Shown in pieces: positions 2,403 to 12,717 of a stretch of DNA of 12,717 nt. Below the pieces are notes generated by a model. The model was not told the origin of the DNA, did no database searches, and saw only the letters and a program-made list of their open reading frames with translations. Both the position numbers and the translations under genes were made by a program. The stretch comes from Atribacterota bacterium (lineage in GTDB: Bacteria; Atribacterota; Phoenicimicrobiia; Phoenicimicrobiales; Phoenicimicrobiaceae): the NCBI GenBank assembly GCA_038203565.1, contig JBBRDV010000036.1, positions 1-12,717 of the forward strand. Direction: 5' to 3'. Position 1 is the first letter of the stretch. Each line of letters opens with the position of its first letter.

Positions 2403-3020
2403 ATGGTTGAGACAAAAATAAAGAACCAGGTCATAGAGATAACCATTTGGGCAACAGGCGTTCTTCAAGATGCTGAAGGCAGAGATACTGCAAATTGTAT
2501 TGCTGCGGCTGCTGCTCAAGAAGGAAAACATGTTCAGGCTTTTGATAATTATGTAGATTTACCGGACCGTGTCAATGTACCGGTACGAAAATATGCTAGA
2601 ATTAGTTCTGAAGAAATTCAAGAAAAGTATTTATATGAAAATGACCACCCGAATATTGTCGTTCTAGTTGAACCATCCTTGATAAAAGGGTATAATATTT
2701 TAAGGGGTATGCCCAAAGGCGGCATATTGATCCTCAATACAGAAAGAGATCCTGAAGAATTACTGAAATTTGTTCCCAATAAAGAGCTACTAAGAGCGAT
2801 TGCAACCGTTGATGCTAAAGTTGCTGAGAAAATAGTGGATGATTTTATGGACATTGAAGGAGCTTCGGCAAAGGCATTAGGTAGGGGAATTGGTGCAGTT
2901 TTAGCTGGAGCAGTCGCAAAGGTCAGTGGGGAATATTCCTTGGAAAGCTTAAAAAAGGTAGTTCAAAATAAAGAGGGTGCTCAAAAAGGATACGATAGCG
3001 TGAAAATCAAACAGTTATAG
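2403..3020 (+). CDS. 2-oxoacid:ferredoxin oxidoreductase gamma subunit (domain III), oxalate oxidoreductase-like
   Basis: 205 aa. EGKHVQAFDNYVDLPDRVNVPVRKYARISS...KYLYEN...VVLVEPSLIKG closely resembles the recalled N-terminal domain of the Moorella thermoacetica OOR delta chain. The PFOR CoA-binding GRGGQG loop is replaced by WATGVLQD. Confidence 0.9.
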   Translation: MVETKIKNQVIEITIWATGVLQDAEGRDTANCIAAAAAQEGKHVQAFDNYVDLPDRVNVPVRKYARISSEEIQEKYLYENDHPNIVVLVEPSLIKGYNILRGMPKGGILILNTERDPEELLKFVPNKELLRAIATVDAKVAEKIVDDFMDIEGASAKALGRGIGAVLAGAVAKVSGEYSLESLKKVVQNKEGAQKGYDSVKIKQL

Positions 3021-3103
3021 ATTTAAGATTATCTATGAAAATAAAAATAGAGAAATGATTAGGATTATAGAATAATAAATATATGAAGGAGGAAAAGCTT
3101 ATC

Positions 3104-3433
3104 ATGAGCAAGCCCAAAATTCCTAAAGAAAAACAGCTTCCCGAGGGGCTGATTGTAGACTGTCCAAAAACTGAACAGGAACAGATGACCACTGGAGGTT
3201 GGCGTATTTTACGTTCAGTCATTGATCAAGATAAATGTACCCATTGCCGGGTTTGTTGGATCAATTGCCCAGATGCTGCTATTTCAGTAGATGAAAGCGG
3301 TGATATGAAGATAAATCTAAAATATTGTAAAGGCTGTGGGATATGTGCTGTAACTTGTCCGGTAGGAGCAATTAGTAGAGTTCCGGAATTAGATTTTGAC
3401 GAAGTTGTTGTTTATCGAGATTTACCATATTAA
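3104..3433 (+). CDS. 2-oxoacid:ferredoxin oxidoreductase delta subunit (2x[4Fe-4S] ferredoxin domain), OOR-like
   Basis: TGGWR followed by CTHCRVCWINCP and CKGCGICAVTCP, then VPELDF. Start placed at ATG 3104 because AAGGAGG (3086-3092) precedes it; the track's ATG at 3083 has only a weak AGGA too far upstream. Confidence 0.92.
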   Translation: MSKPKIPKEKQLPEGLIVDCPKTEQEQMTTGGWRILRSVIDQDKCTHCRVCWINCPDAAISVDESGDMKINLKYCKGCGICAVTCPVGAISRVPELDFDEVVVYRDLPY

Positions 3434-3461
3434 AATTTAATAGAAAGTAAGGTGATATATA

Positions 3462-4679
3462 ATGAAAGGTGAAAAAAGATTTCTTGCTGGGTTAGCAGCA
3501 GTAGCTGAAGCAGCAAAACTTGCAGACGTTGATGTAATTAGTTCATTCCCTATTCGACCTTATACAGGATTAATGGTCGATCTTTCTCTAAAAGTGGCCA
3601 ATGGGGAACTTGATGCTGAATTTGTACACGCAGAAGGTGAGCATGGCCAGTTAGCCATTGTTCATGGTGCATCTGCTTCTGGTGCGAGAACAATGACCGG
3701 AAGTTCTGGCGTTGGAGTCACTTATGCGTTTGAAACTTATTCTCCAATTTCTGGGGGACGTTGTCCGGTTCAAATGGTGATTGCGGATAGAACCCTTGAT
3801 CCTCCGGGTGATTTTGGCTCTGAACATTCTGACGTTCTTTGCGCTCGAGACCAGGGATGGATTATGGGATGGGCAGAAACACCCCAGGAAGCTTTAGATA
3901 ATACGTTAATTTATTACCGTTTAGGAGAGGACAAAAGGGTTGCTTTGCCTCAATTTAACTGCCAGGATGGTTATTTTGTATCCCATATTCCTGGAGATGT
4001 TGTGGTTCCTGAACAATCACAGGTTAATGAATTTTTACCCCCCTATAAATTGGATAAACCATTAGATCCTCTAAGACCCTACGGGCACGGACCACAAATT
4101 TATTCTGACCAGGGCCCTGTCCTTGAATTACAAAGAGCGATTGTTATGGATAAGGCCAAGGAAATAATTCCAGGGATAATGGATGATTTTAAACGAATCT
4201 TTGGCCGAAAGTATGATCCCTTTATTGAAGATTACAACCCCAATAATGCAGAGGTATGTCTGTTTATCAATGGGGCACATGCCCATACAGCACGCTATGC
4301 CATTGCTAATTTAAAGTCACAGGGAGTTAATTTAGCTTTATGTAAGCTCCGTTTTGTCCGACCCTGGGCGACAGATGAAATTGCCGAAGCACTATCTCGT
4401 TATAAAGTAGTAGGAGTTATTGAAACTAATAATTCTTTTGGTGTAGCCAGAGAAGCTGGCGTTTTTACTCCCGAAGTTGCTGCAACACTTTATAGTTTAC
4501 CAGAAAACAAGAGACCGTTGCTCATTTCATTTATGGCTGGCTTGGGAGGAGAAGCCATCAGGCTAAAGGATTTCTATTTTATGGCGAAAAAACTCATGAA
4601 TACTGCTCAACGGAAGAAGATAGAAAAACCAGTATATTGGATTGGTTTTGAAGAAGACGAAGAAGATTTAACATTCTAA
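3462..4679 (+). CDS. Oxalate oxidoreductase-like alpha subunit (2-oxoacid:ferredoxin oxidoreductase alpha)
   Basis: 405 aa. FPIRPYT replaces PFOR YPITP. Also [28 protein letters not shown] and AGLGG. AAGGTGA RBS upstream. Confidence 0.92.
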
Positions 4680-4695
4680 AGGAGGTAAAAATAGA

Positions 4696-5652
4696 ATGAG
4701 TGACAATACTGTTATGTTAGAAGAACCTATTGCTTCGGTTTTGAAAGCACCATTAGAAGAGCAATATGTACCTGGGCATAGAACTTGCGGCGGATGTGGC
4801 CCAGCATTATCTTATCGATTAATTGCCAAAGCAGCAGGGGAGAACACCATATTTCTCGGTCCAACAGGATGTATGTATGTAGCCAATACCAGCTATGTTT
4901 GTGTACCATTTGCGGTTCCCTGGATGCATACCCAAATAACGAATGGTGCCGGAGTTGCTTCCGGAGTAGAAGCAGCTTATCAAGCAATGATTCGGAAAGG
5001 AAAATACAAAGGCAAGTTTCCCAATATTATTATGATGGGTGGTGACGGTGGAACGTCAGATATCGGCTTACAGGCTCTTTCAGGGGCAATGTACCGAAAC
5101 CATGATATCTTGGTAATTAGCTATGATAATGAATCTTATGCAAATACTGGAATTCAGGTTTCTCCAATGACTCCCTACGGGGCAGCCACTTCTTTTACAC
5201 CACCTGGTGTCAAAATCCCTGAGGCAAATGAGTTTTGGCCAAAAGATCTGACCGCTTTAATTTACTATGGGCATCCCATGGTCAAATATGTCGCACAAGC
5301 AACCATAGGATATCCAGTTGATTTAATGAATAAAGTTAGGAAGGCTTTAAATAAGAAAGGTGCTGCTTTTATTCATGTTCATACCCCTTGTCCAAAAGGA
5401 TGGAGATTTGATGCATCAAGAACCATTGAAATGGCCAAATTAGCTATCCAAACGGGCATGTGGATTAACTATGAAATTGATGAAAATAAGAAAAAATTAG
5501 ATCACGTCCCAAGTAAAATGAAACCGGTTGAGGAGTATTTAAAGGTACAAGGAAGATTTAATCACCTTAGAGCTCAAGATGTTCAAAAAATTCAGAAATT
5601 TGTTGATAGTAAATTAGCCGAAGCTCGACCGGTAGCTGCAAGAACCGTATAG
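4696..5652 (+). CDS. Oxalate oxidoreductase-like beta subunit (TPP and [4Fe-4S] binding)
   Basis: 318 aa. Cluster ligands in [14 protein letters not shown] and PCPKGW. TPP motif GGDGG...[22 protein letters not shown]. Confidence 0.93.
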
Positions 5653-5667
5653 TTTATTTTCTTTTTA

Positions 5668-5715
5668 CCAGAGTTGCACTTTTTAGTATTTTTACATGTT
5701 AAAGTGCAACTCTGG
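5668..5715. terminator. Perfect 15-bp inverted repeat after the beta gene (terminator or mRNA-stabilising hairpin)
   Basis: CCAGAGTTGCACTTT (5668-5682) pairs with AAAGTGCAACTCTGG (5701-5715) around an 18-nt loop. No U-tract follows on the + strand. Confidence 0.6.
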
Positions 5716-11717: not shown

Positions 11718-11926
11718 TAAACTAATGTCTTTTATTCGACAAGAAATAAATATTTTGATAATATAAAATTGGATACAAGGATATTGGATAAGATTATAAT
11801 AGAAATTTATATTTTATAATTTTAACCATTTATATAATTTAAAAATAAAATATCAATATATATAGCACAATAAATATTAAGATATTATGTAGATATTATT
11901 GGGTCGTAAGATAGATATCAGGATTG

Positions 11927-11963
11927 AAACTCAAAATTATTTGGATTAGTTTTGAGTTTTTTT
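11927..11963 (+). terminator. Terminator-like hairpin with U-tract in the leader of the second GGT
   Basis: AAACTCAAAA (11927-11936) pairs with TTTTGAGTTT (11950-11959), and the T run extends to 11963. The stem is AT-rich and therefore weak. Confidence 0.45.
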
Positions 11964-12036
11964 GCACAAGCCCCTGGTATAAGAGTTGCCCAGAGCTTTT
12001 TGTGCTTTTGGGAATCAGTTAAACTGGAGGTGATAA

Positions 12037-12063
12037 ATGATCAAGAAAGATATAAAAGTATAA
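12037..12063 (+). CDS. Putative 8-aa upstream ORF (MIKKDIKV)
   Basis: GGAGGTGA at 12026-12033 with ATG 6 nt after GGAGG; TAA at 12061-12063. Confidence 0.4.
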   Translation: MIKKDIKV

Positions 12064-12070
12064 GTCTATA

Positions 12071-12081
12071 AAGGGAGGTGA
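12071..12081 (+). promoter_or_regulatory. Orphan Shine-Dalgarno motif AAGGGAGGTGA
   Basis: No start codon at SD spacing; 72 nt before the ATG at 12154, which has its own AAAGGAG RBS. Confidence 0.45.
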
Positions 12082-12153
12082 GACTAAGGATAGAAAATTT
12101 TCTTATCTTTGTGAATTTTACGATATAAAAAAATTTAAAAGGAGAAAAAGAAA

Positions 12154-12717
12154 ATGAAAAAAGTGAATACAAAATTTATGATGGGTATCTTGATTGCTGT
12201 CGCATTATTTGCTACAAGTGTAAGCGGAGTTTTTGCTGAACAACAAGATTTAAAAGATATCGTAATGACCTATGGTTCAGTTCGTACGCCAAATATTGTT
12301 GAAGCCATGCGTCCAGTTATGTTTGGAACAGAAGGAGTTGTAGCTTCAGGAAATACTTATTCCTCACTAATTGGATATGATATTATTAAAAAAGGTGGTA
12401 ACGCCTTTGATGCTGGTGTAGCAGCAGCAATGGCTCTTAAGGTAACTAAAATGCACTATGCAGGTTGGGCTGGAATTACTCCTTTTATTGGATATTCTGC
12501 CAAGGAAAATAAGGTTGCAGCCTATGCTGGTGTAGGGAAGTCTCCTATGGCAGCAACAGCCGATTTCTTTTTAGATCAAGATTTTTTACTTATGCCAGCA
12601 GCTTCAGAGCGACCTTTTCAAGTTGCCTTAGTACCTACCGAACCAGATACTTTTGTTGCTATTTTACAAAGATGGGGGACAATGAGTTTTACTGAAACTA
12701 TTCAAGGGGCACTTGAG
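12154..12717 (+). CDS. ggt: Second exported gamma-glutamyltransferase-family protein (partial, runs off the window; absent from the ORF track)
   Basis: 188 open codons. Signal peptide MKKVNTKFMMGILIAVALFATSVSGVFA|E, then RPVMFGTEGVVASG...KKGGNAFDAGVAAA...YAGVGKSP...QRWGTMSF, typical of the GGT large-subunit N-terminus. Confidence 0.9.
   Translation, partial: MKKVNTKFMMGILIAVALFATSVSGVFAEQQDLKDIVMTYGSVRTPNIVEAMRPVMFGTEGVVASGNTYSSLIGYDIIKKGGNAFDAGVAAAMALKVTKMHYAGWAGITPFIGYSAKENKVAAYAGVGKSPMAATADFFLDQDFLLMPAASERPFQVALVPTEPDTFVAILQRWGTMSFTETIQGALE

Follow-up and report, generated by a model that had tools for sequence, protein, structure and literature searches.

Why would genes for exported hydrolases and a DctM-like carrier stand directly behind the genes of an oxalate oxidoreductase (OOR)? 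This question is raised by a 12,717-base stretch of Atribacterota DNA, hereafter the window, which is a complete contig (C36) of a 1.97-Mb assembly in 218 contigs. Behind its OOR genes lies a cassette encoding a DUF6305 protein, a DctM-like permease, a 53-residue micro-protein, an AstE-like hydrolase and two enzymes of the gamma-glutamyltransferase (GGT) family. A first-pass annotation had read this row as a candidate system that hydrolyses oxamate or N-oxalyl amides outside the cytoplasm, imports the product and oxidizes oxalate. We found that the cassette belongs to a family whose usual partner is pgsBC, not OOR, and that the window lies in one branch of this family which is linked to OOR. 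A functional tie of this cassette branch to oxalate catabolism appears to be somewhat the likelier case, and the reading of the branch as an oxalate-supply module is tentative (probability roughly 0.4). To our knowledge, OOR is the sole coenzyme A-free anaerobic route for oxalate oxidation, and the source of its oxalate has been little studied. If the branch does free oxalate from amides such as oxamate, this would represent a new anaerobic entry into oxalate catabolism and would offer a starting point for working out the substrate logic of a DUF6305/DctM-like/AstE-like/GGT cassette that is widespread but unpublished. A full-text search, in which subscription journals are mostly not covered, found no paper mentioning DUF6305 and none joining "oxalate oxidoreductase" with Atribacter or with gamma-glutamyltranspeptidase.

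Oxalate oxidoreductase and the OOR-linked branch of the cassette

Protein families were named by Pfam and NCBIfam profile searches of the open reading frames (ORFs) of the window, all of whose long ORFs lie on the + strand in one co-directional row. OOR alpha (3462..4679, +) scored 557.2 bits against NF045791, above the cut-off of 500, and matched the Moorella thermoacetica OOR structure 5c4i_A at E 8.5e-144. OOR beta (4696..5652, +; PF02775), the subunit that binds thiamine pyrophosphate, was under the equivalog cut-off of NF045792 (534.2 vs. 590 bits), yet this was its best model by far, the next being PorB with 323 bits. The subunit in which domain III and a ferredoxin are fused was split into two genes in the window and in all related loci. 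Along the 316-residue fused OOR "delta" model NF045790, the gamma gene with domain III (POR domain; 2403..3020, +; PF01558; 226 bits, cut-off 230) covered positions 11–206, and the delta gene for a ferredoxin-like 2x[4Fe-4S] protein (3083..3433, +; PF00037; 115 bits) covered positions 225–315. A CDC48/VAT-type double AAA+ ATPase (68..2233, +; TIGR01243, 812 bits vs. a cut-off of 803) heads the unit. In the alignment, the alpha subunit of the window reads PIRPYTG, whereas the PFOR-type PorA 9bt4_B reads PITPQT. We take the Arg of PIRP to occupy the Arg31-alpha position, and PIRP and the switch-loop residues are presumably those that bind oxalate in OOR. The switch loop of the window alpha was identical to that of 5c4i_A, and PIRP and the switch loop were retained in every OOR clade aligned. 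The OOR with a PIRP motif named in the first-pass annotation was borne out by the alpha score, the structural match and the presence of both motifs. Judged by its sequence, the window oxidoreductase is a genuine OOR with a split gamma/delta subunit and a Cdc48 head.

The surroundings of OOR were surveyed in 28 other genomes, and genes were clustered over 33 loci with the branch loci included (loci, genomes and contigs carry our own L, G and C numbers). The Cdc48/VAT-type ATPase was directly upstream of OOR in 26/28 of these loci, the remaining two being contig ends, and an FCD-type GntR regulator was present in 21/28. Most OOR loci contained a transporter gene, mostly directly behind OOR beta. 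By tblastn, an LctP-family permease was found in 11/28; a CLC channel cluster occurred in 13/33 of the clustered loci and an MFS cluster in 9/33. In the window, the DUF6305 and DctM-like genes stand directly behind OOR beta, which is where other OOR loci mostly put their transporter. The cassette was behind OOR beta in only two of the 28. In a concatenated alpha+beta tree (33 rows), the cassette-bearing OORs formed two clades. One comprised the window and L011, beside G002 and G389/G360; the other comprised L012 with L171 and L113 with L163, beside G156.

For the cassette itself, species-representative genomes were scanned with the AstE-like alignment, the best 80 loci were kept, and tblastn was run over these. 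A DctM-like gene was directly upstream of the AstE-like gene in 74/80 loci, and a GGT-family gene was present in 50/80. OOR genes were found in two, L011 from an Atribacterota metagenome-assembled genome (MAG) and L012 from a Bacillota MAG. Other cassette loci included those of Fusobacterium nucleatum, Treponema vincentii, Clostridium tetanomorphum and Varibaculum as well as Acidobacteriota and Bacteroidota MAGs. OOR alpha was searched in 50 genomes out of the 76 remaining general-type loci and was over the cut-off in none of the 50, the best score being 308 bits. The family at large is not an oxalate system.

A tree of 74 AstE-like proteins (quick search, midpoint root) grouped the window with L011, L012, L013 and L047 in one clade (SH-aLRT 96). 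Added members of this branch were G121:C180 (L111; 3985 bases, cut at both ends), G301 (L163) and G253, which has two copies (L171 and L180). Because they showed the same contig, coordinates and scores, G004 and G138 were counted as one genome. The branch totals eight genomes and nine loci, plus the metagenome contigs L178 and L179; a metagenome scan with the AstE-like protein returned these two loci, both from the lineage of the window. The Bacillota genome G301 contained ten AstE-like genes of the cassette family on six contigs.

Of the eight branch genomes, seven had OOR alpha over the cut-off, and six had it and the cassette on one contig; it was not found in G121, which is 86% complete. 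DUF6305 directly followed OOR in the window, L011, L012, L163 and L171, and in G001 OOR came after LctP and Cdc48, about 7 kb beyond the second GGT. As background, OOR was present in 2/86 Atribacterota genomes, each from a different family and each with the branch cassette adjoining OOR, and in 30/401 sampled genomes from the phylum of G003. Within the 401-genome sample, the identity of AstE-like proteins to L012 fell into two groups (69–100% vs. ≤53%). All four carriers in the upper group were OOR-positive, vs. 0/15 in the lower, general group. The genomes are kin, so these co-occurrence counts overstate independence. The co-occurrence and synteny with OOR by which the first-pass annotation proposed to check its reading hold within the branch but fail for the general cassette.

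Remodelled pockets and a shared palindrome

The AstE-like gene (8098..9360, +) encodes a membrane-anchored protein of 420 amino acids without a match in Pfam or NCBIfam, even at E 10. A phmmer search gave marginal PDB matches to 3na6 and 6twm (E 0.17) over NLNRxxPGRP. Among 7997 scored candidates, 1092 relatives were found at E ≤0.001, and many of these (43–51% identity) carry PF24827 and are annotated at source as members of the succinylglutamate desuccinylase/aspartoacylase family. H84, E87, N179, N181, R182, H216 and E282 were invariant in an alignment of 26 relatives (H84-x-x-E87, N179-x-N181-R182), and we assume that the HxxE, NxNR, His and Glu map to the zinc ligands and catalytic Glu of aspartoacylase. 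For the AlphaFold model (mean predicted local distance difference test score, pLDDT, 87.9), the top Foldseek matches were 3na6, 6twm, 3cdx and 2qj8 (E 4e-8 to 6e-7, template modelling (TM) score 0.3–0.45); after the AstE/AspA structures came M14 carboxypeptidases, Csd4 and MpaA. The model supports a distant AstE/AspA-fold (M14-like) protein, predicted to be a zinc hydrolase. The AstE/AspA label given earlier is upheld by fold, motifs and PF24827 relatives, but no profile matches the protein itself. Seventy-five conserved positions were shared with the general family, and 11 were switched in the branch. Switches beside predicted catalytic residues were Y>R222, R>P290, N>S285 and Q>H288, each in 8/8, and N>V/C/G86 lies inside the HxxE motif (V86 in the window). 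The permease had nine branch switches and DUF6305 one.

GGT1 (9502..11349, +; 615 amino acids), a GGT-family Ntn hydrolase with a signal-like leader, matched PF01019 with 314 bits (E 2.4e-93) and scored 247 bits on TIGR00066, the model for gamma-glutamyltransferase proper, below its cut-off of 358. GGTs were aligned to the E. coli GGT from the K-12 record, and E. coli numbering is used. Seven rows of the first alignment, wrong-strand shadow ORFs of high-GC loci without Thr391, were dropped. We take the gamma-glutamyl-binding residues to be Arg114, Asn411, Asp433 and Ser462-Ser463. These, and Thr391, were retained in 29 full-length GGTs from other cassette loci. Branch GGTs retained Thr391 and Gly483 in 14/14 and Gly484 in 11/14, while Arg114 and Asp433 were absent in 14/14 and Asn411 was found in only 1/14; they had Ser409 (for Thr409), Arg430 and Thr/Ser463. 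GGT1 kept the nucleophile Thr and Gly-Gly and showed Met, a gap or Gly, Gln, and Val-Thr at Arg114, Asn411, Asp433 and Ser462-Ser463, respectively. On this evidence, the pockets of the branch GGTs and AstE-like proteins appear remodelled away from gamma-glutamyl recognition.

The first-pass annotation had compared the GGTs with HpxW. We take 5HFT (PDB title: gamma-glutamyltranspeptidase) to be the HpxW oxamate amidohydrolase of Klebsiella pneumoniae. Read via alignment to the 2NLZ-type GGT of locus L156, its chain 5hft_B has Ser409, Tyr411, Arg430, Ala433 and His462-Thr463. The pattern of Ser409, Arg430, no Asp433 and Thr463 is common to GGT1, HpxW and the 2NLZ-type "cephalosporin acylase" relatives, and since these relatives share it, the pattern is not oxamate-specific. 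The comparison stands for the pocket pattern with Arg430, but GGT1 is far closer to true GGTs. Locus L156 (G188) itself contained, behind OOR (11336–18209), a GntR gene, an FmdA/AmdA-family amidase, a sigma-54 activator, the 2NLZ-type GGT, which is cytoplasmic (E 1.7e-230 to 2nlz_A), and TctC. The position of the amidase after OOR-GntR is a small independent hint toward amide chemistry.

The DctM-like permease (6584..7882, +), of the ion-transporter superfamily, matched PF06808 over its whole length (residues 21–422; 34.1 bits, gathering score 23.8; E 1.8e-8). Between it and the AstE-like gene, an ORF call gave a hydrophobic micro-protein of 53 amino acids (7910..8071, +), with tblastn relatives at the same place in L011, L013, L047, L111, L178, L179 and L180. 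The permease and the small membrane protein were both confirmed as first described. No DctQ or DctP Pfam family was found in any ORF of the window. The DUF6305 protein (5846..6466, +; PF19823, E 1.5e-45) has an N-terminal hydrophobic leader, behind which its model (pLDDT 89.3) placed a flavodoxin-like alpha/beta domain. Foldseek matches were confined to generic alpha/beta folds of the flavodoxin, SGNH and TIR-like kinds (best E 2e-4), and the modelled fold does not appear to be that of a periplasmic binding protein. Invariant residues were G60, Q61, S103, K105, E117, R120, H139, R145 and D173. An SGNH-type catalytic Ser was considered and rejected, as the Ser of GQS is Ala in the window and L012. 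The translated sequences of DUF6305, the AstE-like protein, GGT1 and GGT2 each show a putative hydrophobic leader at the N terminus, which was modelled as a helix at residues 5–23 in DUF6305 and 4–30 in the AstE-like protein.

The promoters of Bacillota OOR loci showed an 8-base palindrome, GGTATACC, often as GGTATACCAGTATACC and often in tandem. Among the Bacillota branch loci there were three sites in L012 (expected 0.09), three in L163 (expected 0.13), two in L013 and one in L171, and all nine were intergenic. The L012 sites (1633, 7827 and 17419) lie 48 nt before GntR, which heads GntR-Cdc48-OOR, 107 nt before DUF6305 and 149 nt before the aligned LctP start, and the L163 sites (5420, 11698 and 17242) lie before GntR, DUF6305 and the second GGT. 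The L171 site is before DUF6305. L013 has one site between LctP and GntR and one before DUF6305, though the cassette no longer stands behind OOR beta there. Thus, GGTATACC was upstream of DUF6305 in 4/4 Bacillota branch loci. In the control, 1/52 DUF6305 genes of the 76 general loci had it within 600 nt upstream, with 17 occurrences in 1.04 Mb, and 17/26 cassette-less OOR loci (including L144–L162) had it within 450 nt upstream of GntR, Cdc48, OOR gamma or LctP. From its form and placement, GGTATACC may be the operator to which the GntR/FCD regulator of the OOR locus, a putative repressor, binds. If so, the branch cassette would belong to the OOR regulon in these Bacillota, and the predicted operator makes the claim of coupling cheaply testable.

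Three other candidates for regulatory words were tried and rejected. The hairpin-arm word AGAGTTGC of the window recurred a third time ahead of GGT2, at 11982, in a region that folded no better than shuffles (z −1.4), and the word was absent upstream of OOR. Words resembling TATACTAT, considered as a shared operator, were common genome-wide. The k-mers shared among Atribacterota-type contigs were ribosome-binding sites only. RNA contigs from four lake metatranscriptomes were 95–99% alike to the window. X1 and X3 covered parts of CDC48 and OOR (2158–5098), and X4 contigs covered parts of CDC48, OOR and GGT1 (listed pieces 10135–11337). No RNA contig bridged OOR beta and DUF6305, and 5513–9752 was almost uncovered, which is neutral for co-transcription; contigs cannot rank expression and so say nothing either way. 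On separate regulation, which the first-pass annotation had named as a point against a link, the outcome was mixed: the GGTATACC site is shared in 4/4 Bacillota relatives, but the window offered no operator or bridging transcript.

Readings of the linkage

Co-occurrence, linkage surviving rearrangement, the shared palindrome and coordinated pocket changes favour a functional tie between the branch and OOR. Given a tie, the simplest mechanism is one in which oxalate is released from an acidic amide and then imported. The exported amidohydrolases would cleave this amide-bound precursor extracellularly, the DctM-like carrier would take up the resulting oxalate, or a 2-oxoacid close to it, and OOR would oxidize the imported oxalate to CO2. 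The substrate may be an oxalyl-type amide (oxamate, oxalurate or N-oxalyl amino acids); oxamate is excreted during anaerobic allantoin fermentation. The scheme supposes that the carrier would move oxalate, that shared control would mean a shared pathway, and that the same coupling would hold in the Atribacterota-like genome of the window, where no operator was found. The oxalate-feeding interpretation put forward earlier retains the link of branch and OOR, the shared GGTATACC and the remodelled pockets, but the general family is pgs-linked and had OOR in 0/50 genomes.

Nearly as likely as the oxalate-supply reading is an explanation with two independent units, in which the cassette cuts poly-gamma-glutamate or gamma-glutamyl material outside the cell and imports glutamate. 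A GntR-Cdc48-OOR island would have been inserted once, long ago, into a pgs-cassette locus and then spread as a block, with the operator before DUF6305 inherited from the promoter of a transporter gene that the cassette displaced; a polyglutamate-salvage cassette would then have been captured by a foreign regulon. The following observations all weigh against oxalate supply, and most of them suit this explanation. pgsB and/or pgsC were inside 40/80 cassette loci, with pgsB, pgsC and a conserved third gene (X) in 32/80, and pgs genes were in 0/28 other OOR loci; from these counts, the usual partner of the cassette family is pgsBC, not OOR. Within the branch, three of the nine loci (L012, L047 and L180) adjoin pgs genes. 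The order is pgsC, X, GntR, Cdc48, OOR, cassette, two GGTs and LctP in L012, and two GGTs, cassette, X, pgsB and pgsC in L047. L180 (G253:C82) reads CheX, pgsB, pgsC, X, an OOR-type GntR, DUF6305, DctM-like, micro-peptide and AstE-like, with OOR not in view, and is thus the L012 layout without Cdc48-OOR; its GntR shares 43–47% identity with the regulators encoded at the OOR loci L012, L013 and L163. CapC (PF14102) was found in 6/6 branch genomes tested, including that of the window, in which it lies on the short contigs C129 and C214 that carry pgsB-pgsC; the 12.7-kb window contig has neither pgsB nor pgsC. Given these layouts and CapC, the branch is still within a polyglutamate neighbourhood. 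The OOR and AstE-like trees are congruent, so the linkage could go back to a single ancestral event that brought the two together, after which they travelled as a block; the data fit one such old event with later descent, transfer and some loss. Pgs-linked loci, too, include GGTs with non-canonical pockets (e.g., L018 and L034), and a GGT without the alpha-amino-binding residues might suit a polymer with all alpha-amino groups acylated; CapD is said to be a precedent for such a GGT acting on polyglutamate. Against the PDB, GGT1 matched the Bacillus licheniformis GGT 4y23_A at E 2e-57 and HpxW 5hft_A at E 1.3e-10 (rank 23), and the small chain 5hft_B gave no match to GGT1 at E 1e-3; by sequence comparison, the branch GGTs do not appear to be HpxW orthologues. 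No shared OOR/cassette operator was found in the Atribacterota-type contigs searched (window, L011, L178, L111, C215 and C114), where GGTATACC occurred inside genes only. OOR beta is also set apart from DUF6305 by an AT-rich promoter-like stretch and, before it, by a hairpin directly 3' of the OOR beta stop codon (5665..5718, +; 18-nt arms, 18-nt loop, no T-run behind), which is possibly a transcript boundary or stabiliser (−27 kcal/mol, z −4.9, 0/200 shuffles as stable). Its stem is conserved in L011 (5705–5768) with a different loop, its right arm also occurs at the start of L111, and it is absent from L178. Nor does OOR need the cassette, given that G389, G360, G156 and 26 of the 30 OOR genomes in the 401-genome sample have OOR without any AstE-like gene. 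In G002, OOR is on a different contig from the cassette and is followed by TctC-TctB-TctA, with a third, divergent GGT 8.4 kb off. OOR loci normally own anion carriers (LctP, CLC, MFS or TctC), and LctP, the commoner OOR partner, is also present in L012, L013 and, on C114, the genome of the window. What independent units explain less well is that the candidate operator stayed with the cassette through the L013 rearrangement, recurs ahead of the second GGT in L163 and was missing from the sequence available before pgsB in G003 (322 bases). The same holds for OOR in 7/8 branch genomes vs. 0/50 and 0/15 general carriers and for branch-specific pocket changes in both hydrolases.

Two further explanations keep oxalate in part. 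It is unlikely that DUF6305, the DctM-like permease and the micro-peptide are simply an oxalate importer replacing LctP, MFS, CLC or TctCBA, with the hydrolases unrelated. Cassette-less OOR loci do have a transporter, mostly directly downstream of OOR beta (LctP in 11/28, plus MFS, CLC and TctC), no further anion carrier was seen in the available DNA of the window, L011, L163 and L171, and the permease has nine fixed switches. However, the AstE-like protein and GGTs were kept in every sufficiently long branch locus, with fixed pocket changes, LctP is present in L012 and L013 besides, and the AstE-like gene follows the permease in 74/80 loci, which argues for one working unit. Less probable still is an assisted mining of oxalate, in which secreted poly-gamma-glutamate would strip calcium from insoluble calcium oxalate, the oxalate would be imported for OOR, and the polymer would be recycled via the exported GGT and AstE-like enzymes and the DctM-like carrier. 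Poly-gamma-glutamate is a calcium-binding polyanion, and G003 has an uninterrupted row of pgsC-X, GntR-Cdc48-OOR, the cassette with two GGTs, and LctP; the finding of CapC in 6/6 branch genomes suits this idea as well. Yet the palindrome was missing from those 322 bases upstream of pgsB, the 28 other OOR loci had no pgs genes, and no paper on such a process was found among the titles and abstracts by which a full-text search was judged.

The window in its assembly and known systems

The gene row agreed with the first description, running from OOR genes through an exported protein, a DctM-like permease, a small membrane protein and an AstE/AspA-type enzyme to two GGTs, as established by Pfam/NCBIfam searches and ORF calls. 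GGT2 (12154..12717, +; PF01019, E 1.6e-16; leader present) is represented by its first 188 residues and ends at the contig end; a search of the assembly found no continuation. In the 805-base gap between GGT1 and GGT2 lies a 75-nt direct repeat (11647..11721, +) which is 81% identical to 9290–9364, the 3' end of the AstE-like gene, and reads as a C-terminal tail with a stop. It is probably a relic of a second AstE-like gene deleted after tandem duplication. An Rfam scan of the window (E 0.1) gave a single sub-threshold small RNA match, inside CDC48, and scans for consensus promoters and terminators scored no better than chance.

Two other contigs of the same genome (G000) relate to the row. 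C215 (1577 bases) contains a GntR/FCD gene and then a Cdc48 N-terminus 97.9% identical to that of the window; it probably continues the row upstream in a second strain, which would point to an assembly of mixed strains. C114 (4400 bases) contains two further DUF6305 paralogues (74% and 60% identical, the second with an in-frame TGA), which adjoin a 520-residue LctP-family permease on the opposite strand, a carrier type usual beside OOR. The metagenome contig L178 (11,991 bases) was 92–99% identical to the window in the OOR proteins and 95% in GGT1, but 68–79% in DUF6305, permease, micro-peptide and AstE-like protein. These identities give it the look of a mosaic sister locus in which recombination might have exchanged the core, and in place of GGT2 it has a C69 peptidase. 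The OOR contig of G002 (C109, L112) reads Cdc48, GntR, OOR and TctC-TctB-TctA, followed by an epimerase, TerC and pyruvate phosphate dikinase.

Compared with known systems, the OOR of the window resembles that of Moorella thermoacetica (5C4I/5EXD/5EXE; NF045790–NF045792) in its alpha subunit over the cut-off, the PIRP Arg and the identical switch loop, but differs in having gamma and ferredoxin in two genes, a beta subunit under the cut-off and a place in a separate clade. The permease corresponds to DctM, the large membrane component of tripartite ATP-independent periplasmic (TRAP) transporters (DctPQM); in contrast to these, the window has no DctP binding protein or four-helix DctQ, and the 53-residue peptide and DUF6305 stand there. 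The AstE/AspA deacylases (succinylglutamate desuccinylase, aspartoacylase and DoeB/EutE) provide the best fold matches and the invariant motifs for the 420-residue protein, whereas the latter is membrane-anchored, extends some 90 residues further at its C terminus, reaches TM scores of only 0.3–0.45 and is unrecognised by Pfam/NCBIfam. Like HpxW, GGT1 is a GGT-family Ntn hydrolase with Ser409, Arg430 and Thr463 and with Asp433 lost. Unlike HpxW, GGT1 and GGT2 carry export leaders; GGT1 is a weak sequence relative of it, and the window is without purine or ureide genes. With the general pgs-linked cassette, the window shares the same four core genes in the same order, flanked by exported accessory hydrolases. 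The branch is set apart from that cassette by its place behind OOR, by GGTs that lack the gamma-glutamyl pocket and have Arg430, by Y>R222 and R>P290 in the AstE-like protein and, in Bacillota relatives, by the palindrome of the OOR locus.

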